From the IMG/VR virus record IMGVR_UViG_3300041405_000166, positions 1 to 64,000 of that record: a DNA stretch of 64,000 nucleotides; one strand, given 5' to 3'. The translations under genes and the position numbers were made by a program. Below, piece after piece: positions 1,960-43,478 of this stretch. The notes below the pieces were generated by a model. The model worked only from the letters and a program-made list of their open reading frames with translations, made no database searches and was not told the DNA's origin. The stretch comes from a virus. Every line of letters begins with the position of its first letter. The stretch's first letter is position 1.

Positions 1960-1974
1960 TCGTGACCATAAGGT
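1960..1974 (+). promoter_or_regulatory. Putative late promoter (TCGTGAC motif)
   Basis: TCGTGAC-ca-TAAGGT upstream of the MuF gene; the same motif recurs before 8 other putative late genes. Confidence 0.65.
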
Positions 1975-2000
1975 GCCTGGAGAACTCAAAGGACACCTGC

Positions 2001-3176
2001 ATGTCACAGTTTATCGACGTTTCAAGCGTTCCAGACCATGCCTTCGACCAGGGCATCGAGGCGATGTACAAGGCGATTGGCGAAGGTGGCGACGACGGCA
2101 CTACGCGACCGCACGAGTCCCCCTTTGTCCGTGAGCTGATCGAGCGTTTCACTCAGCGCGGCCTGTTGCAGATTCATGGCGTGCAGACTGAGCTGGACGA
2201 GTGGATCAAGGGCGAGCACTTCCGGCCAGGTGCTGAAGTGCCGGCCGCGTTTGCTGGCGGGATCCTGAAGTGGACGCCCGACGAGTTGCGCCTGGCGAAG
2301 CTCTACCTGGAATCAATTCCCCCGGCCCAGTTCGGCATTGAGGACTGGTCGCTGCTGGTCGACTACATTGCTCAGCGCTACCTTCCGCCGGAGTTCGCCC
2401 GTACCGCAGCCGAGTGGATGGCGACCAAGTCGACGATCATGGGCAAGGTGCAGGAAGCCAAACCAGAATTGGAGGCGCCGGCTGTGTCGGTGCTGCTGCC
2501 AGCGATCCCGGAAACGTCGGCGGCGGCTGAGGCGATGTTTGGTCTGAATCGCTCACAGCGGGCGATCATGGACTTCGGTCAGGCGCGCTGTGCTGAAAAC
2601 ATCACCGGATTGACCGACAGCCTTCGCCACCGGATCAAGCGCGTGATCCTGGCGCACCAAGAGGCAGAGTTCATCGGCGACTCCGCGGCGACCGCTTCCA
2701 GCCTGCAAACGCAGCTGCTCGACGAGTTCGGTCCGTTGAATCGCGACTGGCGCCGTATCGCCATGACCGAGGCGTCGGAAAACTCCAATCAGGGGTTTAT
2801 CGCGGCGCTGGATCCGGGAACCATGGTTCGGCGCCAGGAACGCTACCAGGGTGCGTGCGCGTTCTGCCGCAAGATCGACGGAAACGAGTTCAAGGTCGTT
2901 GACCCGGCGCAGAAGATCAAGAATCCGGAAACGGATGTGTGGGTGGGTAAAACCAACATCGGCCGGTCCGCTTCGCCAATGAAGCGCGTCAACGGTGCGC
3001 TGATGCCGCGAAACGCCGCTGAGCTGTGGTGGCCCGCTGCTGGGGTGCAGCATCCGCATTGTCGGGGAATCTGGATCATCATCAAGCAGCGCGAGAAGGC
3101 CGGCGACGCGAAGTTTAGCGCCTGGCTGGATGAAAAGCTGAAGGCGCCAGCCAGACCTGTCGTGATTGCAGACTAA
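2001..3176 (+). CDS. Phage minor head/morphogenesis protein (MuF / SPP1 gp7-like)
   Basis: WRRIAMTE, ACAFC and QHPHCRG motifs. True start is ATG 2001 (AAGGA RBS), not 1539. Confidence 0.75.
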   Translation: MSQFIDVSSVPDHAFDQGIEAMYKAIGEGGDDGTTRPHESPFVRELIERFTQRGLLQIHGVQTELDEWIKGEHFRPGAEVPAAFAGGILKWTPDELRLAKLYLESIPPAQFGIEDWSLLVDYIAQRYLPPEFARTAAEWMATKSTIMGKVQEAKPELEAPAVSVLLPAIPETSAAAEAMFGLNRSQRAIMDFGQARCAENITGLTDSLRHRIKRVILAHQEAEFIGDSAATASSLQTQLLDEFGPLNRDWRRIAMTEASENSNQGFIAALDPGTMVRRQERYQGACAFCRKIDGNEFKVVDPAQKIKNPETDVWVGKTNIGRSASPMKRVNGALMPRNAAELWWPAAGVQHPHCRGIWIIIKQREKAGDAKFSAWLDEKLKAPARPVVIAD

Positions 3177-3212
3177 CGTTCACAGTTTCGATCGGTCCGG
3201 GGATGCTCGCAG

Positions 3213-4610
3213 ATGAGTTTGGTACAGCAATTGGTAATGCCAATGGTGATCGGCCTCGTCATGCCGATTGACCGGGTGCGTGGCGGTGCCAGTCCACCGC
3301 CTGCACCGACCACTGCGTTTTTCACCTCAGCACAATTCTCCCCTGGCTTCAGCGGCTCGATCAGCACTACCAAGAACGCGGCCAAGGTCTACGCCCGCGG
3401 CGCGCTGACTCTGTGGTCTGGTTTCATCGCCGGTACCGAGGCCAAGCTTACCGCACCGACCGACGCTGGTGACTACGACGGTTCGTTGCAGGTCGCGATT
3501 GACGGCGGCGCCTTCACCAGCGCTGCTCGAGCCGGTTCGGTTTACACCCTGTTCACTGGTCTGGCGCACGCCAACCGTTTTGTCGAAGTCCGTTGGGTCG
3601 TGCAGATGGGCGATGCGCCCTATATTGCCTCGTCCGGCAACGTGCTCGAAGTCACCGGCCAACCTCCGTCGATCAATCCGTCGATCAACCGGGTAGAGGC
3701 TGGGGCCAGCTCGTCGACCGGACTCTTTTCTGGCGCGCTGATCCCTAACAGCGCCACCTACACGCCGCAATTGCAGGCACCGTCTGGCACGGTATACGGC
3801 TCCAACGTCGGGTCAATCAAGCTGCGTGGTGCCTTCACTCGGTTGGTGGTGTCGGTCAACGGCATCCGCAAGATCGGTGTCAGCAAGAACGGTGCAGCGC
3901 CGGTGTTCTACTCGGTAGCCGATGAAACCGATAGTCCAGTGCGGGTGATGGTCGTGCCATGTGACGGCTCAGATGCCATCTACAACGTCTGGGACAGCGG
4001 CAACATTTTAAACACTGGCGGTCACTTCTCGGTGTCGGGCAACTCGACGCTGCTCGACATTGGCCCGATGTGGCGGATGCACATGTTCGGCGATTCGATT
4101 GTCTCGGGGGCAGGGCCTGGCGCCACTGCGGTGGATTCTGAGGTAATGTCCCTCGCTGCTACCCTGGGCGGGGTCGGCACCACCATCGGAGTCGCCGGCC
4201 AGACCATCGCCGGCTGCATGACGATGCTCGACAATACCTTGCCCCTGCTGACGGTGGAGGATGACGACGTAGCGATCCTGTCTATCGGCGGCAACAGTGC
4301 CGCGGGCGGGATCGACGCACAGAAGAAGGCCGACTACCTGGCCTGCATCAACAAGCTACGGGCCAAGGCGTACCGCAAGATCATCTGTCGCGGCATCCTG
4401 CCAACGCCGGACGGCTCAGACACCCGCGCCATCTATAACGTCGAGCTGCAGTCGGTGGTGACGGCCTTGGGTGATCCGCGCGTGGTCTGGATGGACACCA
4501 GTACCTGGGTCGGCTATGCGACGGTGGATAACACCCATCCAACGAACGTCGGCTATCGAACGATCTATAGCTATGAACTGCCGGCCGTCGCGGCAATCTT
4601 GGGCCTTTGA
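3213..4610 (+). CDS. Virion-type protein with C-terminal SGNH/GDSL hydrolase domain
   Basis: SGNH blocks FGDS, GVAGQT, IGGNS and DNTHP; beta-rich N-terminal region. Confidence 0.75.
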   Translation: MSLVQQLVMPMVIGLVMPIDRVRGGASPPPAPTTAFFTSAQFSPGFSGSISTTKNAAKVYARGALTLWSGFIAGTEAKLTAPTDAGDYDGSLQVAIDGGAFTSAARAGSVYTLFTGLAHANRFVEVRWVVQMGDAPYIASSGNVLEVTGQPPSINPSINRVEAGASSSTGLFSGALIPNSATYTPQLQAPSGTVYGSNVGSIKLRGAFTRLVVSVNGIRKIGVSKNGAAPVFYSVADETDSPVRVMVVPCDGSDAIYNVWDSGNILNTGGHFSVSGNSTLLDIGPMWRMHMFGDSIVSGAGPGATAVDSEVMSLAATLGGVGTTIGVAGQTIAGCMTMLDNTLPLLTVEDDDVAILSIGGNSAAGGIDAQKKADYLACINKLRAKAYRKIICRGILPTPDGSDTRAIYNVELQSVVTALGDPRVVWMDTSTWVGYATVDNTHPTNVGYRTIYSYELPAVAAILGL

Positions 4611-4619
4611 GGAATCGAA

Positions 4620-4889
4620 ATGACTATTATCTTCGCAAGTAAAACCACCGTGGCGCCGTCTGCCGATCAGGATGCTGCCGGGCCGGTGGCCCTGATTGCC
4701 TCCGGCTCATTCGGCGGCGCAGTGCTATTGATTGAGGTCCGATCGGACAGTCAAGCGTATGTGCCGCTGTATCAGTTCACTGAGGCCGGCGCGGTTAAGT
4801 TGGCGATGGTGACCGGTCAGCAATGGCGAGCCAGCCTGAGCAATGTCAGTGCTCTGACCTCGGTTAACCTGTCCGCGCTGGCGGGGTGA
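4620..4889 (+). CDS. Small hypothetical (beta-rich, possibly structural) protein
   Basis: 89 aa, GAGGA RBS, in operon. Confidence 0.7.
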   Translation: MTIIFASKTTVAPSADQDAAGPVALIASGSFGGAVLLIEVRSDSQAYVPLYQFTEAGAVKLAMVTGQQWRASLSNVSALTSVNLSALAG

Positions 4890-4892
4890 CCA

Positions 4893-6171: not shown

Positions 6172-6186
6172 TCGTGACGGCACCAT
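6172..6186 (+). promoter_or_regulatory. Putative late promoter (TCGTGAC motif)
   Basis: TCGTGAC-gg-CACCAT upstream of ATG 6214. Confidence 0.65.
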
Positions 6187-6213
6187 CCCGCAACAAATCG
6201 GACTGGTGCCCTC

Positions 6214-9200
6214 ATGCTGCTTATTCTGTTCAAAGACCTCCTTAAAGCCCAGCAGCTTGGCCTATTCGCCAGTCCGACGCTGGTGGCGCCGCATGTCCGC
6301 AAGGACGGAACCCTGGTCAACGCGCACATTCGCGTGGTGAAGAAGCGCCCGACCGTGCCGCTGAAAGGCCGCATCACCTCAGCACCGCGCCCGCATACGC
6401 CTGATCTGTTCGCTACCCATGACGAGCCTGTGGTGATCGGCCACACCCGCGATTTGTTCGACAGTGCGCCAGCGCCCCGAGCTGCTCAACCTGACCTGTT
6501 CGCTCCCGCAGTAGAAGCCCCGAAAATCAAGGCACCTGAGGTCAAAACCCCCGAGCCCGCTCCCACGGCACCGGACGACGTAAAGTGGTTCGGTAGCCAG
6601 GAGAAAGCAGACGCCTGGATCGGCAAAAAGAAGCTGTCCGACACGCATGAAGTTGTCGCGGTTGGTCGTCGCTTCGAGATCCATCCGCGGGCAACTGTCA
6701 AGGAATCCTCGGTAGTTGCTCCAGTCGTCAAGCCTCAAGTGACAACTGAAGTGTCAACTGCTCGCCAGCCTGGCATCAATTACGACGGGCATTTTTCCCC
6801 TTCTTCTATCGCGCCGTTCGGCGTGAGCGCTGGTGTGACCAAGGGCGAGCGGATCCGCATCAACAACGAAGCGCACAGCCTGATCAATCGTGGCGGCCCA
6901 TTCAGCGACGATGAGCGCGTCACCCTGAGCCAGTACAGCGGCAACGGCGGCGTGGGCGATAGCCTCAACGAGTTCTACACCGATACGCGTGTGGCCGCCG
7001 GCATGTGGAAGGTGCTGCATGACCTGGGCCTGCCTGAAGGCGCGCAAGTCCTGGAGCCTTCGGTGGCCACCGGCGTGTTCATGCACACCGCGCCCGACGG
7101 CGTGAAAGTGGTGGGCGTGGAACTGGACGGCATCAGTTCTCGGATTGCCCGGGCACTGCACGGCGCTGACCATGAAGTAAACAACTCCAGCCTCGAGCGC
7201 TTCGCGACGCAGGACGATCGCCAGTTCGACGCCGTCATTGGTAACCCACCGTTCGGTCTGCGCGGGGCACTGATCAAGGACGACAAACCGCACCTGGCCA
7301 CCGCCGAACAATACTTCATCGACACCGCGCTCGATAAGACCAAGGCCGGTGGCGTGATCGCCCTGATCTTGCCGTCGGGCGTGATGGACTCGAAAACCGG
7401 CCGGGCTTTCCGCCAAACCATCCTGACCAAGGGCGAGTTCATCGGTGCCCAACGCATGCCGAACACCGCGTTCGAGCACGCGCACACCGGCGTGACCACC
7501 GACGTGCTGTATCTGCGCAAGCGTCCGGATGACGTGGCGATGGCGCTGGGCACGCTCGATGCCAGTCAGCTGCGTGAGCTCGGCGTGCTGGATGACGAAT
7601 TCCTGGCCGGCTCCTACTTCACCGGTACCGGCGCTGAGAATGTGTTGGGCACCATGACTGAAGGCTGGCGGGCCAAGGCCGGGATGGGCAACGACATCAC
7701 CGTCGAAGGTTCGATGCAGGGCGTGCCGGAGGCGATCGCCGCATTCAAGCCTGCGCCGGTAGCGGTCGGTCCGAGCATGGCTGACGTGCTGGCGGTGCTT
7801 CCCGAAGGCCAGGCCCGCGATCGCGCCTTGTCCGCTGCTGGGAAAAAGGCTTATGCCGAGGCCCGTGTCGGCGACACCAAGGTGGTCGATGGCGTGACCT
7901 ACGTCCTGCAGGGTGATCCACCGCGCTGGAATCGCATGGATGATCTGATGCAGAAACCGTCAGTGGCCGATGCGTTGCCACTGGCCGAGGACATTGATCG
8001 GCTGATGAATGGGCAAGCGGTCGATCGTCCGGCGCTGGAGGCCGCGGTGAATGCCTACATCGAAGCCTACGGAATCCCGTCCAAGAACAAAGACCTGATG
8101 ATGGCGGCCGGCTCCGACAAGCGACTGTATCGCCTGGTGGGCGCGATCAAGCCTGACGGCTCGCTGTCCGACGTGGTGACCGGTTCCACGCGCAAGCAGG
8201 AAGCCACGCTGGATGGTGCGGCGCAGGCGCTGGCAGTAGAGCACGGCACCTTCACGCCGGCTGAGCTGGCCGCACGCTGGGGCAAGGGTGACGCCGAGGA
8301 AGCGCTTGATCACCTGTACGCCTCGAAGTCCTACGCCTTGCTGCCCGACGGCAACTGGACCACCACCGACGCATACCTGTCAGGCGAGTTGTGGCCGAAG
8401 CTGGATGCTGCCCGGGCCGCCATGCTTAACAGCGAGCTGAGCCAGATCGACCGCGCCAAGTTCGAGCAGCAGGCGCAGCAGCTGGAAACCGTGATCGATC
8501 CGGCCTCGATCGATGACGTCGATATCGCCGTCAACCAGGCCTGGATCCCGCTGTCGATCATCAGCGAGTACTTCACCGAGAAAAACGCCAACGGCAACGA
8601 GTGGACCAAAAAACTGGCACCGGTCGAAGTGACCTATGCCGATGGCATCTACACCGTCAGCGGCGGCAACGAGTACGGCGAGACCAAGCTGCTCGACACC
8701 TACCTCAACCGCACCGGCGTGCGCAAGGATGACAAGGCCACGCTCGAGGCGATGAATCGCGACTTCAAAACCTGGGCCCTGACGTCCGGCCACCGCGACG
8801 AGCTCGAAGACCTGTACAACCGCAAGTTCCGCGGCTTTGCCGAACGCACCTATTCGGAAACCCCATTCGAGATCCCCGGCCTGAATGCTGACGGCCTGAA
8901 GACCTACCAATACGCCGGCCTTCGCTGGGCCATGGACACCGGCAAGGGCATCATTGCTGCCGACGTGGGCCTGGGCAAAACGGCGCGCGGTCTGATCCTG
9001 GCGAAGATGGCCAAGGCTGACGGCAAGGCTGAGCGGCCGATGATCGTCGTACCGAAATCGGTCCTGGCCAACTGGTATGCAGAAGCCGAGAAATGGTTCC
9101 CCGGTTCGCGTGTGCTGACCATCGGCGAGAGTTATTCGCGTGATGAGGACGGCAAGCTGATCGGCAAGCAGGACACCGTGGCCGAGCGCAAGCGCAAATA

Positions 9201-12162
9201 CCACGACATGACCCAGAACGATTACGACTTCATCCTGATCAGCCAGCCGGCGTTCGAGGAGGTCGACGTTTCGCCGGAGCTGAAGAACAACTACCTGGCC
9301 GATGATTTCTGGGTGCAGCGCGGCGACAAACTGGGCAACGCGGGCGACAAGCGCATCAAGAAGGTCCGCGAGGCCTACGAGCAGTCGGTCGCCGGCCGTG
9401 AGTTCCAGGACCGTACCGACGCGATCAGCTTCGAGGACCTGGGCGTCGATATGCTGATCCTCGACGAAGGCCACGCCTACAAGAACCTGTATGCGGCGCG
9501 TAACCGCTTCGGTGAGTCGCCGAAGTTCCTCGGTGGCCAGGGCCAGTCGAACCGCGCGTTCGATATGTCGTTTAAGACGCGCTACATCCGCGACAACAAC
9601 GACGGCAAGAACGTGTTCACCCTGACGGCCACACCGACCAAAAACAGCCCGCTGGAAATCTACAGCATGCTGTCCTACGTCGCGCCGGAAGCCTTCGAAA
9701 AGATCGGCATCCGCAACAGCGAGGACTTCCTCGATCGCTTCTGTGTGTTCACCACGGAAAACATCCTGAGCACCACTGGCGAGATCGAAGAGTCGTTGGT
9801 GACCAGCGGCTTCAAGAACATGGACGAGCTGCGCGAAATCATGCGCCGCTACATCCACCGGACCACTGCCGAGGACGTCGGCCTGGTGTTGCCGTCGCGC
9901 GATGACCGTATGCACACCGTTGACATGGACGAAGATCAGAAGGCCGCCTACGTCGATCTGCGCGCCCTGGCTGAGGAGTCGGCCAAGAAGGATGACGCCA
10001 CCGGCGACGGGCACATCTTCAGCATCATGGATAAGATGTCGAAAGCGTCGATGGACCTTGAGCTGCTGGATCCGGCGAAGTATGCCGGCCATGTCTCGCC
10101 GAAGTACCAGGCCGCGGCCAAGGAAATCACCAACGGCGCGCAGGATGGCGGTCAGGTGGTGTTCTCTGACTTCGTCGCCTCCCACGAGAAAATCGCCGCC
10201 GAGCTGGTCAAGCGTGGCATCCCGCGCAATGAAATCGCGATCATCAATGCCCAGGTGGCCAACAGTTCGCTGAAGCGTCAGCGCATCGCCGACGATTTCA
10301 ACGCCGGGAAAATCAAGGTGGTGATCGGCAACACGGCGACCATGGGCGAAGGTATCAACCTGCAGGTGGGTACGACCGACATTCACCACCTTGACTTGCC
10401 GTGGGAGCCAGCCTCGATCCAGCAACGCAACGGCCGCGGTCTGCGCCAGGGCAACATCAGCGAAGCGGTGCGGATCCATACCTACCTGTCCAAAGGCAGC
10501 TTTGACGGCTACAAATACCAGACCGTGGCCTCGAAGCGCGATTGGCAGGGCGACCTGTGGAATGGCGGCAACACCATCGCCAACCACAACCGTCCGGACA
10601 ACCTGGCGCGTGAGGACATGCTGATCATGTTGGCCGCCGATCCGGACGAAGCCCGCAAGCAGTTTGCCGAGAACAAGTCCGCGGCGCTCGAACGCCAAGG
10701 CAGCGAGAAACGTCGCGAAGTGGCCGTGCAGTTCACTCGCCTGCAAGGGCTCAAGCGCAGCTACTCGAAACTGGCGGGCAAGGGTGGTCGCAGCGCGATC
10801 AAGCTGGCGGCCGAGATCGAGAAGGCTCAGACCAACCTGGCGAGTTCGAAGTGGTTCACCGCCAAGGACCTGCTGACCAGCGACGCGCCTGCAGTGGTGC
10901 ATCCGGATACCGGCGCCGGGATTACCCTGGACACCGTGTTGCACCTCGGGCCGAAGTCCAAGATCAGTGGCGGCGGCGACTGGGTGGTGACTGGGGTCAA
11001 TCCTGAGGACGGCCGTCTGCGTCTGCGTCACTATGCCGGTACCCGCTCGATGGGCGTGGAGCTCGCCGAAGTCGGCAGCGACCTGACCGTCAGCAAGCTG
11101 GACCATTCCGTTGAAGCCACCGAAATGGCGCGTCGTGTTGAAGAGACCGTGACCGCTGGCGACAACGCGATTACCTCCCCGGCGCAGGTTGCGCAACTGC
11201 CGGCCGAGACGGTGAAGAAGCTTTACCCGCAGATCCAGGCGCAGCTGAAGGAAGCGCGCAAGGCTTACAAGATGGATCGCCAGTTTTCTGAAGGGCGCGT
11301 TGGTGTGCTAGGCGCCGATGGCGTGCCGAAGGTGATTGCCTACTTCCACGACAAAGGCGAGGACGATTACCTGCTCGCTACCGATGATCACCGGGCGAAG
11401 GTGCTCGATGCCTACGTCGGCGCCGAGCGAGGGAAAAAGTTTTCGATGGACTGGCAGTCGAACGGGCGCAAGAACAGTTCGGGCGGCACCTACGTGTTTC
11501 GCCAGAAGTACGACGGCGGCTGGGACTGGTACACCAACCCATGGGGCGAGGTCGGCAAGAAGCTGTTCGGCAGTGAGTTCGAGGCTGAGGCCATGCGCCG
11601 TGTCGCGCAGTCGGCGATCACTGACGGGCGCCACGCAAAGACGCTGGCCGAAGCCTACCAGGCGCTGAAACCCCTGGCGCAGGTCGCTGGATACGGAACG
11701 CCGAAGGTGACCATGCCGAAACGTGCCATCGCGACCCTGTACGCCCAAGCGAAGCGCGTCGATCTGCTGGGCCAGGTGAGCAAGTACGCCACCGGCGGTG
11801 ACCAGAAGGCTGACCACCAGATCCTCAATGCGGATCTCCCGCTGATCAGTGCGCTGATCGAACGGGCCAGCGTATCGGGCCATCAGGACCTGGCGGCGGC
11901 GATGGTGCTCGACCATTGGAAGGATCAGCCGAAAAAGGCGCTGGAAATGCTCGCCACCGTATCCGAGCAGCAGCATGACAGCCGCTATTCTGGAACTACC
12001 ACCGTGGTCTCGAAACAAGCCAAGCAGGCGATCCGCGTCCTGGTGGAAAACAATCCAGAGCTGGGTAAACTCAAAATCGACGAGCTCCCTTGGGCACTGA
12101 AGCATATCTATCCGGCACGCGCCGGAACCCTGGGTGAAGCCCTGCAGGAGAACGCAGCATGA
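6214..12162 (+). CDS. Giant DarB-like protein: N6-adenine DNA methyltransferase + SNF2-family helicase
   Basis: MTase: EFYT, VLEPSVATG, GVELD, IGNPPF. SF2 helicase: DVGLGKT, LDEGH, TATP, MGEGINLQ, QRNGRGLRQGN. Same architecture as P1 DarB. Confidence 0.85.
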   Translation: MLLILFKDLLKAQQLGLFASPTLVAPHVRKDGTLVNAHIRVVKKRPTVPLKGRITSAPRPHTPDLFATHDEPVVIGHTRDLFDSAPAPRAAQPDLFAPAVEAPKIKAPEVKTPEPAPTAPDDVKWFGSQEKADAWIGKKKLSDTHEVVAVGRRFEIHPRATVKESSVVAPVVKPQVTTEVSTARQPGINYDGHFSPSSIAPFGVSAGVTKGERIRINNEAHSLINRGGPFSDDERVTLSQYSGNGGVGDSLNEFYTDTRVAAGMWKVLHDLGLPEGAQVLEPSVATGVFMHTAPDGVKVVGVELDGISSRIARALHGADHEVNNSSLERFATQDDRQFDAVIGNPPFGLRGALIKDDKPHLATAEQYFIDTALDKTKAGGVIALILPSGVMDSKTGRAFRQTILTKGEFIGAQRMPNTAFEHAHTGVTTDVLYLRKRPDDVAMALGTLDASQLRELGVLDDEFLAGSYFTGTGAENVLGTMTEGWRAKAGMGNDITVEGSMQGVPEAIAAFKPAPVAVGPSMADVLAVLPEGQARDRALSAAGKKAYAEARVGDTKVVDGVTYVLQGDPPRWNRMDDLMQKPSVADALPLAEDIDRLMNGQAVDRPALEAAVNAYIEAYGIPSKNKDLMMAAGSDKRLYRLVGAIKPDGSLSDVVTGSTRKQEATLDGAAQALAVEHGTFTPAELAARWGKGDAEEALDHLYASKSYALLPDGNWTTTDAYLSGELWPKLDAARAAMLNSELSQIDRAKFEQQAQQLETVIDPASIDDVDIAVNQAWIPLSIISEYFTEKNANGNEWTKKLAPVEVTYADGIYTVSGGNEYGETKLLDTYLNRTGVRKDDKATLEAMNRDFKTWALTSGHRDELEDLYNRKFRGFAERTYSETPFEIPGLNADGLKTYQYAGLRWAMDTGKGIIAADVGLGKTARGLILAKMAKADGKAERPMIVVPKSVLANWYAEAEKWFPGSRVLTIGESYSRDEDGKLIGKQDTVAERKRKYHDMTQNDYDFILISQPAFEEVDVSPELKNNYLADDFWVQRGDKLGNAGDKRIKKVREAYEQSVAGREFQDRTDAISFEDLGVDMLILDEGHAYKNLYAARNRFGESPKFLGGQGQSNRAFDMSFKTRYIRDNNDGKNVFTLTATPTKNSPLEIYSMLSYVAPEAFEKIGIRNSEDFLDRFCVFTTENILSTTGEIEESLVTSGFKNMDELREIMRRYIHRTTAEDVGLVLPSRDDRMHTVDMDEDQKAAYVDLRALAEESAKKDDATGDGHIFSIMDKMSKASMDLELLDPAKYAGHVSPKYQAAAKEITNGAQDGGQVVFSDFVASHEKIAAELVKRGIPRNEIAIINAQVANSSLKRQRIADDFNAGKIKVVIGNTATMGEGINLQVGTTDIHHLDLPWEPASIQQRNGRGLRQGNISEAVRIHTYLSKGSFDGYKYQTVASKRDWQGDLWNGGNTIANHNRPDNLAREDMLIMLAADPDEARKQFAENKSAALERQGSEKRREVAVQFTRLQGLKRSYSKLAGKGGRSAIKLAAEIEKAQTNLASSKWFTAKDLLTSDAPAVVHPDTGAGITLDTVLHLGPKSKISGGGDWVVTGVNPEDGRLRLRHYAGTRSMGVELAEVGSDLTVSKLDHSVEATEMARRVEETVTAGDNAITSPAQVAQLPAETVKKLYPQIQAQLKEARKAYKMDRQFSEGRVGVLGADGVPKVIAYFHDKGEDDYLLATDDHRAKVLDAYVGAERGKKFSMDWQSNGRKNSSGGTYVFRQKYDGGWDWYTNPWGEVGKKLFGSEFEAEAMRRVAQSAITDGRHAKTLAEAYQALKPLAQVAGYGTPKVTMPKRAIATLYAQAKRVDLLGQVSKYATGGDQKADHQILNADLPLISALIERASVSGHQDLAAAMVLDHWKDQPKKALEMLATVSEQQHDSRYSGTTTVVSKQAKQAIRVLVENNPELGKLKIDELPWALKHIYPARAGTLGEALQENAA

Positions 12163-13032: not shown

Positions 13033-13109
<77 letters not shown>

Positions 13110-13110
13110 T

Positions 13111-13917
13111 ATTGACGAGAGCGTTTGACGCGCCTCATGAACCGGTGGCCGTGGAATACGGGAACTTCTCAAGCTTGGCGAGTACGCCTCGAACCTTGGG
13201 ATGCGATACGGCAGGAGCATGCGGGTCAATGACAGGAGGGAAAGACCCCGCGAATTCGGCGAAAGCCAAAACGTAAAAGAGAGATGCGACCCTGGAATCT
13301 TTTTCAATAAGTCTGGATCGCGATTTTAACGACGGTATCTAAACACGTCGAGACAGCCGGAGAGACGGACCGATCGACTTCGCCGACCAGAATCAAGACT
13401 CCTTGGCGAGGCTGCATCGGAAGTTCCACGGTAACGCTTCGGCGCTAGCCGGCACTTGGGAGAAAGGGGCCTGGAGGCTTACAGAGCGAAACGCCGCGTG
13501 AGTAAGGCATTGACCCCGGCTATGTGGAACTTCCGATGCAGAAAGCTCGTGACAACTGAAACATGAGATCGCCCCCGCTTCGCACAGTGGGCTTAGGTTC
13601 CGTCCCTTTGGGGTTATCGCGGGCCAAGGGGCGACAGGTAACGAGTAGAGTTTTTTGTATCCCGGCACCTCGCAAGAGGCTGTATCGGAAACATCCCCTC
13701 GTGATAGCAGGCTGGCCAGCAGGCAACCGCACCCGAAAGGGTTGGATAGGACCTCACTGGGGATGTTTACCGATGCAGATGAATGTCCAGGCTGATGGGC
13801 GCCGATCTGGGTTCAATTCCCAGACCTCTGATTATGGGGAATTGCCTGAAGGCGGCGACCTTCCGAAACGCTGGTCGTCTAACAGTTAAAGCCGGAGATC
13901 AGCACCGGCCATCTGCA
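13111..13917 (+). ncRNA. Structured non-coding RNA modules, 3' part of RNA island (family unassigned)
   Basis: Perfect 18-bp stem 13412-13429/13524-13541; related stem 13680-13698/13759-13778; tRNA-like module 13774-13917; two more GACAG..GG(A/G)AGAC hairpins. Confidence 0.6.
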
Positions 13918-14664: not shown

Positions 14665-14679
14665 TCGTGACCGCACCAT
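14665..14679 (+). promoter_or_regulatory. Putative late promoter, leaderless
   Basis: TCGTGAC-cg-CACCAT, 5 nt before ATG 14685; no SD. Confidence 0.65.
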
Positions 14680-19311: not shown

Positions 19312-19722
19312 ATGAAGGTTGTCTACGTCGCAGGTCCATACCGCCACGCCACCCGCGCTGGCATCGAACTCAATATCCAGTCGTCGATGAAGGTCGGCTG
19401 CCTGGTCGCCCAGAAGGGCTATTCGCCGATCATCCCGCACATGAACACCGCGCACATGGACGAAGTCATTCGCCCAGGCGACGAGCAGTTTTGGTTGGAT
19501 GCCACCATGGAGCTGATGCGCCGCTGCGATGCAGTCGTCCTGTGCCCGGGTTGGCAGATGTCCAGCGGCACCATCGGCGAGATCATCGAAGCGGTTCGCC
19601 TGGAAATCCCAGTGTACGAATCAGTCGAGGTACTCCCTTGCCCGACGGTGTTCGTCCGTGCTCCGCGCATCCCGAAGTTCATCCAGCGCGCGATCAAACA
19701 GGAGCTCGCTGCCAATGGCTGA
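19312..19722 (+). CDS. DUF1937/DUF4406-like (nucleoside deoxyribosyltransferase-fold) protein
   Basis: VYVAGPY, PIIPH, RRCDAVVL.PGW..S.GT..E motifs. Confidence 0.7.
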   Translation: MKVVYVAGPYRHATRAGIELNIQSSMKVGCLVAQKGYSPIIPHMNTAHMDEVIRPGDEQFWLDATMELMRRCDAVVLCPGWQMSSGTIGEIIEAVRLEIPVYESVEVLPCPTVFVRAPRIPKFIQRAIKQELAANG

Positions 19723-21349
19723 ATACACGCTGCACCTGGGCGATTGCCTGGATGTCATGCGCACATTGCCGGACAACTCGGTTGACAGCGTGGTGACGGA
19801 TCCGCCTTACGCGTTCCCTGGCGGATTCATGGCTAAGGAATGGGACAACTTCGATGGTCGGGAGGATGCTGGCTTTGGTTATTGGCTTGCAGGCTTCACC
19901 GATGGCGAGGGGCATTTCCGTGTCCAGAAGCATGAGCGCGGATCTCATACTTGCGTGTTTCAGATCAAAACACGGGATGATGATCGAGCCGTTTTAGAAA
20001 GAATCAAACGTTTTCTTGGTGTAGGTGTTATCTACGACATGGAAGGGAGCGGAAATGCAAATCCTCAATGTGCGTATATTGTTCAAGACAAGGATGGTTG
20101 TGCACGTATTGTTGCTCTGTTTCGAAAATATCCGCTGACTGCGAAGAAAGCGAACGACTTTGAAATTTGGGCAGAGGCAGTAGAGGAATGGCTAGAACGT
20201 CCACGCGGCAATCGCTGGATAGGCACGTCTGATCAGACTCGAGCGGCCTCCCTAAAAGCTCGAATTGAAGATGTCCGTCGTTATACAGGTATCCCATGGT
20301 CAGGTCACAAGTTCCAGGACTGGGTTCGTCAGTGGGCAAGCGAAGCCCTACGAGTGCTCAAGCCTGGCGGCCATTTATTAGCGTTCGGATCTCCTCGACA
20401 ATATCATCGGCTCGCGTGCGGTATTGAGGATGCGGGCTTTGAAATCCGCGATCAAATCCTTTGGGTATTTGGAACAGGATTTCCGAAAAGTCATAATCTC
20501 AAGGGCGATCATGAAGGCTGGGGCACTGCATTAAAACCAGCGCATGAACCGATCTGTATGGCGCGCAAGCCATTCGCCGATACTGTAGCGATGAACATGG
20601 CCGAGCATGGAGTTGGTGCGCTTCATATCGATGCTTGCCGAGTCAGTACCAATGATGCGCTGGGCGGCGGCGATCAGAATGCAAAGCCCAAGGTGGTTTC
20701 CGAAGGATGGGATCGACCATGGATGCAGGACCCAGAGCAGAAGGCAGCGCATGCTGCGCGCGTAAACCAGAACGTGGCGAAAGCGGAGGATCTTGGGCGA
20801 TGGCCGGCGAACCTGATTCATGACGGTTGCGCCGAGGTTGTCGCAATGTTTCCGGCCGAGGCCGGTGCAGCTGCGCCTGTGCATACGCGTGGATCTGATA
20901 AATTCAGAACTGCCTACGGTGCCTTTAGCGGAAATATTGATGAGGCTGGCAGCACTTTTCACAATGACAGTGGCAGTGCCGCACGCTTTTTTTACTGCTC
21001 CAAGGCCAGCCGCACAGATCGCCACGAAGGGTTGCTGAATCCTGGCCCTCAGTTCAAGCAGGGCACCACCTTGCGCAATGTCCAGACGGCTGAGCTGAAA
21101 GGCAACACACACCCGACGGTCAAGCCCACTGACCTGATGGCCTATCTTCTGCGCCTGGTCACTCCACCAGGTGGAACAACGCTCGACATGTTCGTTGGCT
21201 CCGGCAGCACGGGCAAGGCCGCCATGCTGGAAGGCTTCGACTTCATCGGTATCGACAACGATAAATCCTATCTGGCGATGGCTGAAGCGCGCATCTTGTA
21301 CGCCCAGCAGTTCGCCAAGGATGAGTCGAGTCAACTCTCGCTGATCTGA
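19715..21349 (+). CDS. DNA methyltransferase (N6A/N4C, beta class) with in-frame LAGLIDADG domain
   Basis: GDCLDVM, VTDPPY, LRVLKPGG, HPTVKP, DMFVGSGSTG; insert begins YWLAGFTDGEG. Start ATG 19715 after AGGAG. Confidence 0.85.
   Translation: MAEYTLHLGDCLDVMRTLPDNSVDSVVTDPPYAFPGGFMAKEWDNFDGREDAGFGYWLAGFTDGEGHFRVQKHERGSHTCVFQIKTRDDDRAVLERIKRFLGVGVIYDMEGSGNANPQCAYIVQDKDGCARIVALFRKYPLTAKKANDFEIWAEAVEEWLERPRGNRWIGTSDQTRAASLKARIEDVRRYTGIPWSGHKFQDWVRQWASEALRVLKPGGHLLAFGSPRQYHRLACGIEDAGFEIRDQILWVFGTGFPKSHNLKGDHEGWGTALKPAHEPICMARKPFADTVAMNMAEHGVGALHIDACRVSTNDALGGGDQNAKPKVVSEGWDRPWMQDPEQKAAHAARVNQNVAKAEDLGRWPANLIHDGCAEVVAMFPAEAGAAAPVHTRGSDKFRTAYGAFSGNIDEAGSTFHNDSGSAARFFYCSKASRTDRHEGLLNPGPQFKQGTTLRNVQTAELKGNTHPTVKPTDLMAYLLRLVTPPGGTTLDMFVGSGSTGKAAMLEGFDFIGIDNDKSYLAMAEARILYAQQFAKDESSQLSLI
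19847..20311 (+). mobile_element. LAGLIDADG homing-endonuclease domain embedded in the MTase
   Basis: Single LAGLIDADG motif (LAGFTDGEG) plus LERIKRFLGVG and YPLTAKKANDF; visibly more AT-rich. Boundaries approximate. Confidence 0.75.
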
Positions 21350-21357: not shown

Positions 21358-21397
21358 TCGTGACTTCATGATCCCCGCCACTGAGCGGGGATTTTTT
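21358..21397 (+). promoter_or_regulatory. Putative late promoter overlapping a terminator hairpin
   Basis: TCGTGAC-tt-CATGAT, then ATCCCCGC-cactga-GCGGGGAT-TTTTT. Confidence 0.6.
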
Positions 21398-21658
21398 ATG
21401 CGCGACACCATCGACAACGTGCACAAGCAACTGGCCAAAGTCGCCGGCCTGCATGCGCGCGTCCAGGCCACCGACGATCGTATCGGTCAATCAGCCAGCG
21501 AGCGCTTGGCCAAGGTTGACGAGATGCTCGCCGACCTGCGCCCGAAGGTGATCCTCGACAGCGACGCAGCAGACGAATACATGGCCCTGGTGCATGAGCG
21601 CGGTCAGCTCGTGACAACGCAGCAGGCAACACGCCAAGAGACTGGCTCGCAGTCGTGA
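21398..21658 (+). CDS. Hypothetical protein
   Basis: 86-aa helical ORF preceding the head genes. Confidence 0.65.
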   Translation: MRDTIDNVHKQLAKVAGLHARVQATDDRIGQSASERLAKVDEMLADLRPKVILDSDAADEYMALVHERGQLVTTQQATRQETGSQS

Positions 21659-21667
21659 CAGCAGAAT
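21653..21667 (+). promoter_or_regulatory. Putative late promoter, leaderless
   Basis: TCGTGAC-ag-CAGAAT, 7 nt before ATG 21675. Confidence 0.65.
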
Positions 21668-26283: not shown

Positions 26284-26927
26284 TGCACCTCAATCCTGAC
26301 GAGTTCAACGCGCACCTTAATGACCTGGGCCAGCTGTTCGGCTGGCGCCCATCATTCGTGTGTCCCTGCTCCGTCGCCGGGTATGGATCAGCTGATCCTG
26401 AATGCCCGAACTGCCTCGGCCGCGGTCATATCTGGGAAGCCGAGCAGCAAGGCATGTCGGGCATTGCCGGGATGAAGATCCAGCGCCAGTGGGCCGACTT
26501 CGGCGGTTTCCAGGCGGGCGACGTGGTGCTGACCATCCCGAGTGATTCGCCGCTGTACGATATCGGCGATTACGATCGGGCCACCATGCTGAACAGTTCC
26601 GAGCCGTTTTCCTTCGAGTTGACCCGTGGCGGCAATGACAAGCTGTGGTTTACCGTGGTGTCGATCCGGCGCGTGTTCTGGCTGGATGAAAACAAGGTGA
26701 TCGTTAACGGCGGCACTCCTGAAGTGGCCGAAGACGGTACGCTGACCTGGACCACGGGCGAGCCTCCGATCGGCGTCATGTACAGCATGACCGGGCGCCG
26801 GCTCCCGGAGTACTTCTGCTACCAGGATTTCCCCCAGGACCGCGCCCACCATTCCGGCGCACGTCTCCCGCGCAAAGTGGTGCTGCGTAAGTTTGACCTG
26901 TTGGGGCGGGTAGAGAACGGGGCCTAG
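26283..26927 (+). CDS. Putative neck/head-closure protein
   Basis: CPC..CPNC.GRG zinc motif; position in neck cluster. Confidence 0.55.
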   Translation: MHLNPDEFNAHLNDLGQLFGWRPSFVCPCSVAGYGSADPECPNCLGRGHIWEAEQQGMSGIAGMKIQRQWADFGGFQAGDVVLTIPSDSPLYDIGDYDRATMLNSSEPFSFELTRGGNDKLWFTVVSIRRVFWLDENKVIVNGGTPEVAEDGTLTWTTGEPPIGVMYSMTGRRLPEYFCYQDFPQDRAHHSGARLPRKVVLRKFDLLGRVENGA

Positions 26928-27772
26928 CCCCCGAAATCCAGTTTCACGGCTTCGCGGAACACTTCCTCTGCCAGTGGCGTCATGCGCTCGGCGACTTGCT
27001 TGGCCAAGAACAGGCCAGGCTTCGCCGGGATGATCCAGCCGCTTGAGCCTTCCATCATCACCCTGAACGTCATGTACGAGCTGCGGCTTTCGACGCCAGA
27101 ACTCGACTCCATGCGCACCATGCCCGCGTACTTGTTCTGTACGTCCTTGCCATGTTTGGCCAGGTCGCCAGACTTGAGTGCGCCTGCCCAGCGGTAATCG
27201 CGAGATGGCACGACGGAGCGGCCTTTGGTGTTCGGGTCCGAGGCAAACTGCGGTTGCTTGCGGGCGATCACCATGCCGGCCCCAGGGATCAGGTGCACGG
27301 TCTGCCCGGCCAGGCGCTCGCCTTTGCCGACAATCAGGGATTTGGCTAGGTCGCGGGCCTGCTGGTAAACACCGAAGGGCATGGCGCTCTTGCCATTGCC
27401 TGGTGTGTTGTGGCGAAACGGGATGATCAGAAAGCGTTTACCACTGGCGGTCCGGCGCACCTTGAGGCTCGTGTCGAGCATCTTCTTCAGGTCACGCTCG
27501 GCGCGTCCGGTTTCGATCGCCTCGGCGTTCTTGTAGGTGGCGACCACTTCAGCCGAGAACGCGCCTTTGTAGTCCCAGGTGATCGACCTGGCGTAGTCCT
27601 GGCGTTCCTTGGACCAGAGAGGGGCATTCATCACCGCTGACGTCCAGTCCCGGTGCGCCGCTGCGGCCACGGCGCCGACCGCTTCATGCAGGCGCGGGAA
27701 AATCTCCTTGCTGAGGTTCGGCGCAAGGTTCATCAGTTCGGACAAATCGACGTTAATGCTGAAGTAGGCCAT
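26924..27772 (-). CDS. Putative virion neck/tail-completion protein, inverted
   Basis: IETGRAERDLKK, FLIIPFRH, YMTFRVM, GWIIP motifs; has its own TCGTGAC promoter. Confidence 0.6.
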   Translation of the reverse strand: MAYFSINVDLSELMNLAPNLSKEIFPRLHEAVGAVAAAAHRDWTSAVMNAPLWSKERQDYARSITWDYKGAFSAEVVATYKNAEAIETGRAERDLKKMLDTSLKVRRTASGKRFLIIPFRHNTPGNGKSAMPFGVYQQARDLAKSLIVGKGERLAGQTVHLIPGAGMVIARKQPQFASDPNTKGRSVVPSRDYRWAGALKSGDLAKHGKDVQNKYAGMVRMESSSGVESRSSYMTFRVMMEGSSGWIIPAKPGLFLAKQVAERMTPLAEEVFREAVKLDFGG

Positions 27773-27778: not shown

Positions 27779-27813
27779 ATGTTCACGTCACGATCAGGTC
27801 GTGACCGCATCAT
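27779..27813. promoter_or_regulatory. Back-to-back divergent late promoters, both leaderless
   Basis: GTCACGA-tcagg-TCGTGAC. Minus: GAACAT then 6 nt to ATG 27772. Plus: CATCAT then 7 nt to ATG 27821. Confidence 0.7.
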
Positions 27814-27820: not shown

Positions 27821-28648
27821 ATGATCTCATTCGCGCAATCCCTCGCCATTGGCAATGCTGTTCGCATTGTCCTCTCGCCACCAGCTGGTGCTACGCGTTG
27901 GCGCCTGCTGCGCAAAGCGACTGACACTTTCACCGGGCAGGATGATCCGGCGGCGCTGGTGGTGCTGGACAGCAAGCAGACCATCAGTGCAGTGGATCGC
28001 CAGTCGCTGACCAATACCAGTACCTATTTCTATCGCCTCTACTCCCTGACCGGTTCGACCTGGGCGCCTTCGGCGACGGTGCCGGTCACGGTGACTGCCG
28101 ATTACCAGGAAGTAACCGATGACGTCCTTACGATGGTGCTCGATCGCCTGAACCAGGGCCTGTTTGTCGAGCTCCAGCGCGGCAAGCTCAAACACCCGAA
28201 TAACCGTATTCCAGTGCTGTCCGCGTTCCCTTTCACGAAGGAAATTGCCTGGCCTGTCGTGACAGTACATTTGTCGTCGGATGGATCGGATGGTCGTGGC
28301 ATCGGTGAAACGCTGGCGCCAGATGAGTTTGATGGAGACGACTGGGAGGTCGGTGAAGGCTGGTTGTCCCGTGTACGCCTGGACATCATCGGCTGGTCGC
28401 AGAACGCGATCGAGCGTCAGTCACTGCGGCAAGCCATTCGCCGCGTGATCATCGCCAACCTTCCTGTCTTCGACAGCGCTGGGATGATCCAGATCGACCT
28501 GAGTCAGTCGGACACCGAAGAGCCGAACGGCGACAAGAACACCGTAATTTACAAAAGCGTGGGCAGTTTCTCCTGTGTTGCACCGGTGCAGATCGTCAGC
28601 AAGCAGGATGAAATCATCGACGTTGAATTGACTGTAACCATGCCGTAG
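27821..28648 (+). CDS. Putative tail terminator/structural protein with FN3-like N-terminus
   Basis: YFYRLY motif; just upstream of the sheath. Confidence 0.55.
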   Translation: MISFAQSLAIGNAVRIVLSPPAGATRWRLLRKATDTFTGQDDPAALVVLDSKQTISAVDRQSLTNTSTYFYRLYSLTGSTWAPSATVPVTVTADYQEVTDDVLTMVLDRLNQGLFVELQRGKLKHPNNRIPVLSAFPFTKEIAWPVVTVHLSSDGSDGRGIGETLAPDEFDGDDWEVGEGWLSRVRLDIIGWSQNAIERQSLRQAIRRVIIANLPVFDSAGMIQIDLSQSDTEEPNGDKNTVIYKSVGSFSCVAPVQIVSKQDEIIDVELTVTMP

Positions 28649-39293: not shown

Positions 39294-39331
39294 GGCGGTG
39301 GCTCCGTGTTGTTCGTCTTGGCTACAACTTA

Positions 39332-39360
39332 AATATATCCATAGCTGCACATCTTTGCAA
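39332..39360 (-). promoter_or_regulatory. Sigma70-like promoter of the phaZ moron
   Basis: TTGCAA-17 nt-TATATT. Confidence 0.7.
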
Positions 39361-39389
39361 CTACAGATACAAAGTAATTTCACCGCTTG

Positions 39390-39404
39390 TCGTGACAGCA
39401 CCAT
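39390..39404 (+). promoter_or_regulatory. Putative late promoter, leaderless
   Basis: TCGTGAC-ag-CACCAT, 6 nt before ATG 39411. Confidence 0.65.
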
Positions 39405-39410
39405 CCTGTC

Positions 39411-40574
39411 ATGAGCACACCATCGTCCCAGAAATCAGACGTCCGCCCGATCAGCTTCCTGCTCCAGGACCTGAGCAACGGCAACGACCTGACCAGCGTC
39501 CCACTGAACATCCGCCCAGCTGATCTGACGCGGGTCGAGCCGTCGCGCGCCTCGGTGCAGCAGACCCTCGGCGGGGCCTGGCTGGATAACTGGGGGCCCG
39601 GCATTCGCCAGGTGAACATCAACGGGCATACCGGCTGGCGTGGCAGCAACTATGAGGACGGCATGGAGCTGTTCCGGACGCTGAACAACACCGTATTCAA
39701 GAGCTGGCACGAGAAACGGCGCCTGGCGATCAGTGCCGGCCGGGATCCTGAGTTGATTCAGCTGATCTTCGCCGACCTGCTCGATGACTTCGTGTACGTG
39801 GTTGCCCCGATGAACTTCACGCTGCGCCGGAGCAAGCAGAGCCCGCTGCTGATGCAATACCAGATCAGCATGCTGGTGCTGTCTGAGGACTTGGTCGACC
39901 TGAAGAACAAGCTACGTCCGCCAGCGATCTTGCCGGGTGACATCGCGGTACCTGAGGCGCTGAAAACCCTGAGGGAGATCCTTGGACGAATCCGCAACTT
40001 TGCCACCAGCGTGGGTAACTTCATCAACGGCACCATTGGTGCAGCCGTCCGATCGTTCATGAACCTGACGGCCGATGTCCTGGCGGTGACGGTCGAGACG
40101 ATCAGTTCGCTCAAAGGTTCGTTTGATGAGGTTGCCGGTCCGCTGCTGTCGGTAGCCACCGACCTGGCCCAGGCCGGGCGCAACATCATGTGCACCGTCG
40201 CCACCGTGCAATCGCTGGGGACCTTCGTCAAATCCAGGATCATGGAAATCAGCGGGGCCTTCACCTACGCCTTGTGCCTGCTGAAAAACGCTTTTGGTGG
40301 CGGCAAGAAATACCCGGACTATTCCGACTGGTACGGCGCGAGCAACTGTTCGTCCATCTCAGGTGGTCGTCCGCTGTCGCCGCTGCGCTTCGAAAACCCG
40401 TTCTACAAACTGACGCCGAGTCCGAGCACGCCGATCACCCAGACACCAGAAGCGCGCAATTCCATGAAGCTGCTGGTAGGCATGGATGTGTTATCGACCA
40501 CGCCGACCATGGACATGGAGTCGAATATCCGCTCGGTGAATGACGGCACGGCTGTCGTTGAGGCTATCGCATGA
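39411..40574 (+). CDS. Baseplate/tail-associated structural protein
   Basis: QQTLGGAWLDNWG..INGHTG; first gene of the second baseplate operon. Confidence 0.6.
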   Translation: MSTPSSQKSDVRPISFLLQDLSNGNDLTSVPLNIRPADLTRVEPSRASVQQTLGGAWLDNWGPGIRQVNINGHTGWRGSNYEDGMELFRTLNNTVFKSWHEKRRLAISAGRDPELIQLIFADLLDDFVYVVAPMNFTLRRSKQSPLLMQYQISMLVLSEDLVDLKNKLRPPAILPGDIAVPEALKTLREILGRIRNFATSVGNFINGTIGAAVRSFMNLTADVLAVTVETISSLKGSFDEVAGPLLSVATDLAQAGRNIMCTVATVQSLGTFVKSRIMEISGAFTYALCLLKNAFGGGKKYPDYSDWYGASNCSSISGGRPLSPLRFENPFYKLTPSPSTPITQTPEARNSMKLLVGMDVLSTTPTMDMESNIRSVNDGTAVVEAIA

Positions 40575-42321: not shown

Positions 42322-42325
42322 CCGT

Positions 42326-43441
42326 ATGAAGCTCACGCAAAAGCTCCTTGGCTACCTCAATCGGGCCTTCAGTCGCGATCCTGTCCAATTCATGGCGCTG
42401 CGTATCAGCTATGACGGCGCCATGGTCTGGACGATCGAGGACGCGGTGCTGACTACCACCGTCACTGGCGGCACGGGCACGAGCCATGTGGTGCAGCTCA
42501 GCGACTACAACCTGGCGCAGCTGGCAAACTACTTCGCTGCACTGCCAGGGTACTCGGTGCCATTCCAGATCTCCGGAACGGCATCAACGCTGAGCGCTCG
42601 CGTACTGATGGATGGCACTGGCGACCAGGTGTTATCGAACGGCGATCACCTGTACGCCTATACCTCGCTGACCTGGGCTTTCCTTGAGGCGAGCGCCTAC
42701 GAGCTCAAGCACGCTCGCGAACAGATTTACCAGATGCTGCGGCAAATGGTGGTGCCAACAGCAGAAGACGAGTGGCTGGATGAGATCGGTGGCTATTACA
42801 ACGTCAGGCGCCAGGATGGCGAGATCGATTCGACCTATGGTCCTCGAATCATTTATGAGGTGATTCGCCCGCGGAACAACAACAAGGCGATTGAACTGGC
42901 AATCAGTCAGGCCACTGGCGGCCTACCATCGAAGGTCACGGACGTGACAATCCCGGGTGATATCTCTCCGCTTTACAATGGGGATATCGACCATGATGGG
43001 TCTAGGCTGTATAACGCGACAGGTAAATATCGGCGAAACCTCTTCGATGTCGAGTATGCGTTTGACCTCGAAGGCGCTGAAGATATTGCCCCATTCCAAG
43101 CGCGTGTGCTTGGCATCATTGACCAATTCCGCTCGGCCGGCACGCACCTTCGGCAGATTTTGCTTCAGTCTGGTCAGCTGGTTGATACCGCCACTTACAA
43201 CTTCACAGACAGTCTGGATTTCGTCGGCACCGTGACGATGGAAGATTCGGTGGATGCCCAGACCGATGACATGGAACTCTCCGGAATTCTTGGTTTGACT
43301 GATACGGCTGTCATGCCTGCCGACGGTGATCTGGTCATTGAGTCGCTGAGCGTTCACACCTACAACGGCGTCCATTTCTATGGCGGTTCTGGCCGTGTGG
43401 TGAATTACGACAGCGGCGAAACCGTGATCGAGACGCTGTAG
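42326..43441 (+). CDS. Baseplate wedge / tail protein I-like
   Basis: TAEDEWLDEIG.YY.V.R..GE.D..Y..RI; follows baseplate J. Confidence 0.65.
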   Translation: MKLTQKLLGYLNRAFSRDPVQFMALRISYDGAMVWTIEDAVLTTTVTGGTGTSHVVQLSDYNLAQLANYFAALPGYSVPFQISGTASTLSARVLMDGTGDQVLSNGDHLYAYTSLTWAFLEASAYELKHAREQIYQMLRQMVVPTAEDEWLDEIGGYYNVRRQDGEIDSTYGPRIIYEVIRPRNNNKAIELAISQATGGLPSKVTDVTIPGDISPLYNGDIDHDGSRLYNATGKYRRNLFDVEYAFDLEGAEDIAPFQARVLGIIDQFRSAGTHLRQILLQSGQLVDTATYNFTDSLDFVGTVTMEDSVDAQTDDMELSGILGLTDTAVMPADGDLVIESLSVHTYNGVHFYGGSGRVVNYDSGETVIETL

Positions 43442-43445
43442 TCGG

Positions 43446-43478
43446 TCGTGACATTACCCTCCTCTCATTAAAGGAGGG
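43446..43478 (+). promoter_or_regulatory. Putative late promoter with SD-sequestering hairpin
   Basis: TCGTGAC-at-TACCCT; CCCTCCT (43457-43463) pairs with AGGAGGG (43472-43478). Confidence 0.65.

Follow-up and report, generated by a model that had tools for sequence, protein, structure and literature searches.

A putative phage-specific late promoter class, TCGTGAY-N2-CAnaAT, in a family of ~90-kb contractile-tailed phages and a candidate protein for its recognition

The closest described counterparts of the element considered here, a TCGTGAC or TCGTGAT box (TCGTGAY) placed 2 nt upstream of a -10-like hexamer, are the Lpa-activated late promoters of phage P1. The element recurs in a stretch of viral DNA of 64,000 nt (the window), corresponding to positions 1 to 64,000 of the IMG/VR record IMGVR_UViG_3300041405_000166. 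Eleven P1 late promoters, of the form AAGTGACTT-N4-TAnnnT, were taken from the annotated P1 record; the ones compared by name were LPmat, LPpro, LPlyz, LPdar, LPs, LPsit, LP23, LP26 and LPpac. In the middle promoters of T4 the MotA box is centred near -30, while the Ogr, Delta and B activators bind a dyad located far upstream, near -55. The late promoters of the Thermus phages of the Lalka group consist of a TAGGGT -10 with no -35 and a conserved C at -25, and their transcripts are mostly leaderless; a phage factor was inferred there, but not identified (bioRxiv 10.64898/2026.04.20.719267).

An earlier note on the window, made from its letters alone, had read the element as a phage-specific late promoter class, dependent on an activator or a sigma factor and analogous to that of P1. 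This reading is supported by the conservation of the motif at orthologous genes, by its placement in short divergent intergenic regions and by the finding of an ATG at the predicted +1; judging from the sequence, the motif is very probably the core of a real phage-specific promoter class, placed before particle, packaging and cargo genes throughout the phage family.

The motif and its genomic context

TCGTGAC-N2-NANNNT occurs ten times in the window against 0.49 expected, a number that none of 100 shuffles reached; in the TCGTGAY form, the whole genome contains 15 sites against 1.31 expected (300 shuffles, maximum 5), three of which, at genome positions 67077, 73475 and 83766, fall outside the window. 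The bare heptamer TCGTGAC is not enriched in the window (14 copies, 10 expected), thus the signal resides in the composite, in its strand and in its position. Fourteen of the 15 genome sites are on the + strand and ten are found within 60 nt of the start of a co-directional gene, against a background of 4% (P = 3e-11). The earlier note, which had made its reading depend on enrichment over background, had listed nine exact copies at gene boundaries (1960, 6172, 14665, 21358, 21653, 27793 on the minus strand, 27799, 39390 and 43446); all of them are present, and the independent gene calls of this analysis place them at boundaries as well. The note had overlooked a tenth exact copy, which is intragenic (28257), and a second TCGTGAT variant at 13699; the variant that it had given at 3160 is there, whereas the CCGTGAT copy, followed by gc and TATAGT, begins at 47989 rather than at 47990. 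Gene coordinates are those of a codon-usage gene caller, which called 115 genes and was checked against PHROG matches.

A matrix was built from 61 sites of six phages, in which A-11 and T-7 are fixed by the search pattern. The absence of a -35 box, already remarked from the window, is borne out by the matrix, which has zero information from -40 to -23. The box occupies positions -21 to -15 and is preceded by G at -22 in 47 of the 61 sites; in the hexamer, C-12 is found in 34 and A-8 in 41, giving the consensus CAnaAT. Position -15 is a C in 43 sites, and T-15 G-14, the classical extended -10, is present in just 12, so that the TG that marks extended -10 sigma70 promoters does not characterize the class.

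Four divergent intergenic regions of the genome must contain a promoter directed rightward; in all of them a copy of the motif is found in the right place (1960, 27793/27799, 39390 and 83766). The 48-bp gap between the genes 26924-27772 (minus strand) and 27821-28648 (plus strand) is mostly taken up by two back-to-back copies. Terminators lie immediately before, or overlap with, four of the sites. No copy of the motif is found at the recombination and replication operons; the divergent region between them (52655-52741) contains ordinary -35/-10 promoter-like sites of the form TTGCAA-17/18-CATAAT, in contrast devoid of the TCGTGAC box. Two promoter classes split the genome by function, and for this reason "late" is a fair label for the TCGTGAC class. 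For the two giant enzymes described below, the designations late and virion cargo derive from gene function and from analogy with P1 DarB, and should be taken as putative.

The viral record has terminal repeats and is complete, with 90,791 bp and 58.8% G+C. It belongs to a contractile-tailed phage, whose genes include those for a head protease, the major capsid protein (SPO1-type), the sheath, the baseplate, a tape measure carrying a lysin domain and several DNA methyltransferases; the portal and large terminase genes are located further along the genome, outside the window. The nearest named relatives of the capsid protein (43-56% identity) are those of Touem01, Dolphis and Jeremy (Pseudomonas), Mecenats66 (Morganella), PHB04 (Bordetella), ST4 (Aeromonas), three enterobacterial phages and a 112-kb Rhodovastum plasmid. 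A megablast of 5 kb of the genome against phage records gave no match. An identity as a P1 relative was rejected, the tblastn matches to P1 being limited to DarB, HrdC and PmgT, with Lpa unmatched.

In Touem01, PHB04, Dolphis, ST4 and Mecenats66, whose capsid identity is 47-52%, the motif is found at orthologous genes, although the proteins are only 30-60% identical; the shared targets are the genes for portal, protease and terminase, the divergent pair, the baseplate genes and the giant cargo genes. The alphaproteobacterial Rhodovastum phage-plasmid, with 56% capsid identity, contains 7 exact sites in 41 kb. The word "promoter" is absent from the published accounts of the relatives Mecenats66 and Touem01, and a search of the literature full text for the heptamer returned mostly primer sequences.

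The single sites, on the + strand unless stated otherwise, are as follows. TCGTGAC-ca-TAAGGT (1960-1974) lies in a divergent intergenic region and faces a conserved head-associated gene (2001-3176), with a predicted leader of ~20 nt, while the variant TCGTGAT-tg-CAGACT (3160-3174) overlaps the final codons of the preceding gene, 38 nt upstream of the ATG at 3213, and is a weaker candidate. TCGTGAC-gg-CACCAT (6172-6186) is upstream of a DarB-like methyltransferase-helicase of 1982 amino acids (6214-12162), which is followed by a Ulx-like gene; the variant TCGTGAT-ag-CAGGCT (13699-13713) is contained in a 1.4-kb non-coding island, 3' of a tRNA gene and 238 nt upstream of a HU-like gene. TCGTGAC-cg-CACCAT (14665-14679) is immediately 3' of a terminator, and the ATG at 14685, which opens a SNF2-type helicase of 1517 amino acids predicted to be leaderless, is 5 nt past the hexamer. 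TCGTGAC-tt-CATGAT (21358-21372) abuts a terminator hairpin, with the predicted +1 within the 5' arm of the hairpin and the gene start at 21398, and TCGTGAC-ag-CAGAAT (21653-21667) precedes by 7 nt the ATG at 21675 of the head maturation protease, also predicted to be leaderless, whose operon reaches the major capsid protein.

The back-to-back pair comprises TCGTGAC-gt-GAACAT (27779-27793, minus strand), with the ATG of the leftward gene 6 nt past the hexamer, and TCGTGAC-cg-CATCAT (27799-27813), with the ATG at 27821, 7 nt past the hexamer, as the start of an operon that reaches the tail sheath. Inside this rightward gene, TCGTGAC-ag-TACATT (28257-28271) is an exact match, possibly due to chance or acting as an internal promoter, and is not secure. 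TCGTGAC-ag-CACCAT (39390-39404) lies in the divergent region past an opposite-strand cassette, 6 nt before the ATG at 39411 of a baseplate/virion gene; TCGTGAC-at-TACCCT (43446-43460) is upstream of the gene starting at 43488 and of a tail-fibre gene, and the variant CCGTGAT-gc-TATAGT (47989-48003) is at the end of the gene 47485-47994. Outside the window, the site at 73475 heads an operon that ends with the terminase, and the one at 83766, in a divergent region, precedes the portal. As a separate observation, window positions 19529-21349 contain a methyltransferase reading frame of 606 amino acids with an insert of HNH/LAGLIDADG type, which was split by the gene caller.

Predicted transcription starts and leaderless genes

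While the enrichment, placement, conservation and co-occurrence were observed, we infer where transcription starts and when, that a factor is needed and which protein it is. In the proposed mechanism, the hexamer CAnaAT would be the -10 element read by a host sigma70-type RNA polymerase, and the G-TCGTGAY box, from -22 to -15, would stand in for the absent -35, with a phage-encoded factor either binding it or assisting its recognition. Transcription would begin 6-7 nt past the hexamer: at half of the sites the +1 would coincide with the A of the ATG, the first gene being translated from a leaderless mRNA, and at most of the others a leader of ~20 nt would carry a ribosome site that is free only in transcripts begun at the promoter. 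The class would serve the late genes, namely those for head, neck, tail, baseplate, fibre, portal, terminase and capsid cargo, and the replication and recombination operons would run from the ordinary -35/-10 promoters.

The position of the ATG bears directly on the start site. An ATG is found 5, 6 or 7 nt past the hexamer in 4, 18 and 8 sites, respectively, that is in 30 of the 61 (P = 7e-24); since this is the usual distance between a -10 and +1, the corresponding 30 mRNAs should begin with AUG and be leaderless. In this genome, the genes concerned by the prediction are those of the helicase and the protease, the two that form the divergent pair, and the first one for the baseplate. At most of the remaining sites the ATG is 25-27 nt past the hexamer and has its own Shine-Dalgarno sequence. 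A hairpin connecting the hexamer or discriminator, or the box itself, with the Shine-Dalgarno or the start region is present in 9-10 of 13 such leadered sites; its calculated energy is -11 to -23 kcal/mol in read-through RNA, compared to about 0 to -2 in most of the transcripts that start at +1 (-6.0 at 43446). The hairpin loci are 6172-6216, 43446-43490 and 21358-21400 in the window, 83766-83809 in the genome, and loci of PHB04, ST4 and Dolphis. At 6172, the -10 region pairs, in read-through RNA, with the stretch immediately 5' of the ATG, and at 43446 the discriminator CCTCC pairs with the Shine-Dalgarno GGAGG solely in RNA of this kind. Thus, either through a leaderless ATG or through the loss of the hairpin in RNA started at +1, the first gene would be translated solely from RNA begun at this promoter, and both designs support the predicted start site.

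The fixed distance between box and ATG in half of the sites could also be expected of an element acting in RNA, such as one for ribosome loading on internal cistrons; alternatively, since several DNA methyltransferases are encoded by the phage, the motif could be a site for DNA methylation, packaging or partition. However, in leadered sites the Shine-Dalgarno is placed 25-27 nt downstream, so that the distance between box and ribosome site is not fixed; moreover, the divergent regions need promoters and contain nothing else, the motif is strictly co-oriented with the downstream gene, A-11 and T-7 have the spacing typical of a -10, and four sites are next to, or overlap with, terminators. A function other than that of a promoter is therefore highly improbable.

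At 21358, and at gp28 of Dolphis, the predicted +1 is within a terminator stem; the terminator would thus halt read-through RNA alone. The deposited starts of the ST4 portal (L009:14915-14940) and of PHB04 gp14 (L007:24862-24886) are downstream of the predicted leaderless ATG. Start codons in this phage family probably need revision, and the promoter motif provides the means to correct them.

A tRNA-Met(CAT) of initiator type, with an encoded CCA end, is located at 13033-13109 on the + strand. It is 89.5% identical to an E. coli tRNA-Met found at a median of four places per genome, and its U1-U72 mismatch and GGG/CCC anticodon stem are initiator-like; this tRNA may be connected with the translation of late genes from leaderless mRNAs.

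A candidate reader protein and competing explanations

No candidate activator is present in the window, as the earlier note had also reported, the best one being encoded beyond it. When the 115 called genes were compared with three complete relatives, two genes were conserved in all three in addition to those for structure, packaging, methyltransferases and replication: 50627-51766, coding for 379 amino acids, and genome 68454-69014, coding for 186 amino acids (P0001). The former was set aside, as its product is widespread in unrelated phages; a zinc-ribbon protein of 169 amino acids (genome 82100-82609) was likewise set aside, as it is confined to two relatives. The 186-residue protein is basic (isoelectric point 9.6), has 8 invariant cysteines in CxxC-type pairs, and its gene is the first one 3' of a 670-bp AT-rich region; the family has 865 cluster representatives at E <= 0.001. 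Just upstream of the gene, genome positions 68100-68450 include ~300 bp that are strongly AT-rich and contain TATAGGG/CCCTATA-like repeats, which may be an early control region or an origin. Next to this control region, at genome 67077-67160, a perfect copy of the promoter is followed after ~50 nt by a strong intrinsic terminator; a small RNA of ~60 nt is predicted from it, antisense to nothing obvious.

Protein and motif are found together in both directions of search. Among 50,697 phage records, the family is present in exactly the ten that carry this capsid; 80 viral loci found through the protein, with 41-71% G+C, contain 133 exact sites where 10.5 were expected, with the ATG at +1 in 47, and the family is encoded in 15 of the 16 near-complete viral records to which the motif led. 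The cysteine-rich domain is also carried by small plasmids (10-27 kb) of E. coli, Citrobacter and Atlantibacter. In two of these, L215 (NZ_OP242302) and L216 (NZ_OW969907), no other gene is shared with the phage, yet two exact sites stand at gene boundaries in either plasmid; in a further two small plasmids a copy of the motif is upstream of the cysteine-rich family gene itself. Together with L214 (NZ_CP018944) and L217 (NZ_CP100496), L215 and L216 are small, non-mobilizable enterobacterial plasmids with the domain and TCGTGAC promoters; some also have primase, integrase, small-terminase-like and tape-measure-like genes, and one has blaCTX-M-14. They may be phage satellites or mini phage-plasmids. 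The link between protein and box is one of co-occurrence rather than proof, and on this ground the cysteine-rich protein is the best candidate for the factor reading the box, with chances that we place slightly above even.

Host polymerase alone, with sigma70, a stationary-phase sigma or another alternative sigma, might read the 15-16 bp element as an unusual extended -10, with no need of a phage factor. The hexamer retains both key -10 bases, the ordinary promoters of the phage also have CATAAT with C at -12, TGn is found at -15/-14 in the 12 sites mentioned above, and the box is invariant over hosts of three proteobacterial classes, as if it were read by a conserved host surface. However, both a -35 and TGn are lacking in 49 of the 61 sites, the replication and recombination operons are devoid of the box, and its distribution follows the phage and plasmid protein family rather than the host taxon; P1, which has the same host range and lacks the cysteine-rich family, has a single, chance match. 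This explanation is accordingly considered unlikely.

The known types of phage regulator were also searched for. In six frames of the complete genome, no match was found at E <= 1 for sigma70 region 2 or region 4 (PF04542, PF08281), a search that very divergent sigmas could escape. P1 Lpa gave no match by tblastn, phrog_1704 had none in six frames of the complete genome, and the profile comparison between the candidate family and Lpa gave a probability of 0.1. Ogr/Delta (PF04606) was matched neither in the genome nor in 62 members of the cysteine-rich family. The model of T7-type polymerases (PF00940) had no match in the complete genome, nor did it match any control genome; no unassigned open reading frame has a size fitting such a polymerase.

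A divergent phage sigma, either the cysteine-rich protein itself or the product of another gene, might read box and hexamer as one element, as T4 gp55 reads TATAAATA; other sigma factors encoded by phages are gp28/gp34 of SPO1 and gp36 of phiEco32. The compact element devoid of -35 is indeed T4-late-like, divergent phage sigmas evade Pfam models, and the fold of the candidate family is unassigned. Against this stand the sigma region searches just described, the resemblance of the hexamer to the -10 of the ordinary promoters of the phage, which fits one host sigma for both classes, and the model of the 186-residue zinc protein, in which no helical sigma-like regions are seen; we regard a phage sigma as slightly less probable even than recognition by the host polymerase alone.

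Several observations weigh against a promoter class read by a phage factor. The sites at 28257, 13699, 47989 and 67077 have no clear target gene, and the 12 sites with T-15 G-14 suggest that some promoters may function without the factor. The co-occurrence of protein and motif partly reflects shared ancestry, and the box, in which TC is kept in 75 of the 96 leaderless contexts of the family, is too constant for a test of co-variation with the protein, for which the variants GC, TG and TA in place of TC were looked for. Gammaproteobacteria are held to translate leaderless mRNAs inefficiently. Finally, the protein has no recognisable DNA-binding or polymerase-binding fold (best VIA-align Z 3.1), although its structure model is confident, with a predicted local distance difference test score (pLDDT) of 91. 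Neither Pfam nor PHROGs has a family that it matches; nothing convincing came from searching PDB sequences with a profile or the PDB for similar folds (best Foldseek E 1.8), BFVD returned just an unnamed viral protein of 90 amino acids and the ESM Atlas just "hypothetical" clusters, and its longer, fused homologues have no informative additional domain.

With these reservations, a phage-specific promoter class read with the help of a phage factor remains the preferred explanation. As a broader and tentative proposal, which we hold to be a little short of an even chance, the members of the cysteine-rich family may be promoter-specificity factors of a new kind. Combined with a bare -10, they would make up a portable transcription module of ~90-kb myoviruses, phage-plasmids and satellite-like plasmids of Alpha-, Beta- and Gammaproteobacteria, coupling translation to its own initiation via leaderless ATGs or promoter-masked ribosome sites and backed, in this phage, by an initiator tRNA.

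The motif supplies a rule for finding transcription units in a family of ~90-kb phages of Pseudomonas, Bordetella, Aeromonas, Morganella and Rhodovastum, and the rule probably extends to the Yersinia, Enterobacter and E. coli members of the family, which are outside the scanned set. It also suggests that virion genes are systematically expressed from leaderless mRNAs in Proteobacteria, a group in which such expression is thought to be rare. One testable gene is named as the missing reader: if the assignment is true, it would define a new transcription factor family with a compact, 16-bp orthogonal promoter that could serve engineering, and it would explain how small plasmids and satellites could join the same circuit.

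Comparison with known promoter systems

As in the middle promoters of T4, which depend on MotA and AsiA, recognition would be divided between host sigma70, at the -10, and a phage protein, at a box replacing the -35; however, the MotA box is near -30, and here nothing is conserved upstream of -22. With Ogr of P2, Delta of P4 and B of 186, the system would share a small phage zinc-binding protein, here proposed as the switch for late operons, with relatives on small satellite-like elements. Unlike these activators, the candidate has no PF04606 match, and no upstream dyad is found, as no sequence is conserved beyond -22.

The Lalka group contains a distant relative of the capsid protein (~36% identity), and in its late promoters, too, the -10 is special, a -35 is missing and one upstream base is conserved. 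The motif is different, TAGGGT plus C at -25 there versus TCGTGAY-N2-CAnaAT here, and Thermus uses leaderless mRNAs generally, whereas the hosts of this phage family are not known for them. At E 1e-3, the Thermus Lalka phages gave no homologue of the cysteine-rich protein; the Lalka group is the nearest capsid lineage where the protein was not found, and there the late promoter differs.

The analogy with P1 proposed in the earlier note holds in its logic, a proximal box plus a -10, and not in its geometry or in its factor. In both systems the promoters have no -35, a sigma70-type -10 and a proximal conserved box containing GTGAC; both serve morphogenesis, packaging and Dar-type cargo genes, and both include a back-to-back divergent pair. 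The P1 box, however, is a 9-bp near-palindrome, AAGTGACTT, placed 4 nt from the -10, whereas the box described here is (G)TCGTGAY, 2 nt from the -10; the GTGAC core is thus 6 nt from the -10 in P1 and 2 nt here, a shift of 4 bp. Lpa is devoid of cysteines and unrelated in sequence to the candidate protein, no Lpa homologue is found in this phage, and the P1 sites that were extracted have leaders and no ATG at +1. The promoter would work in a P1-late-like manner without belonging to the P1 system.

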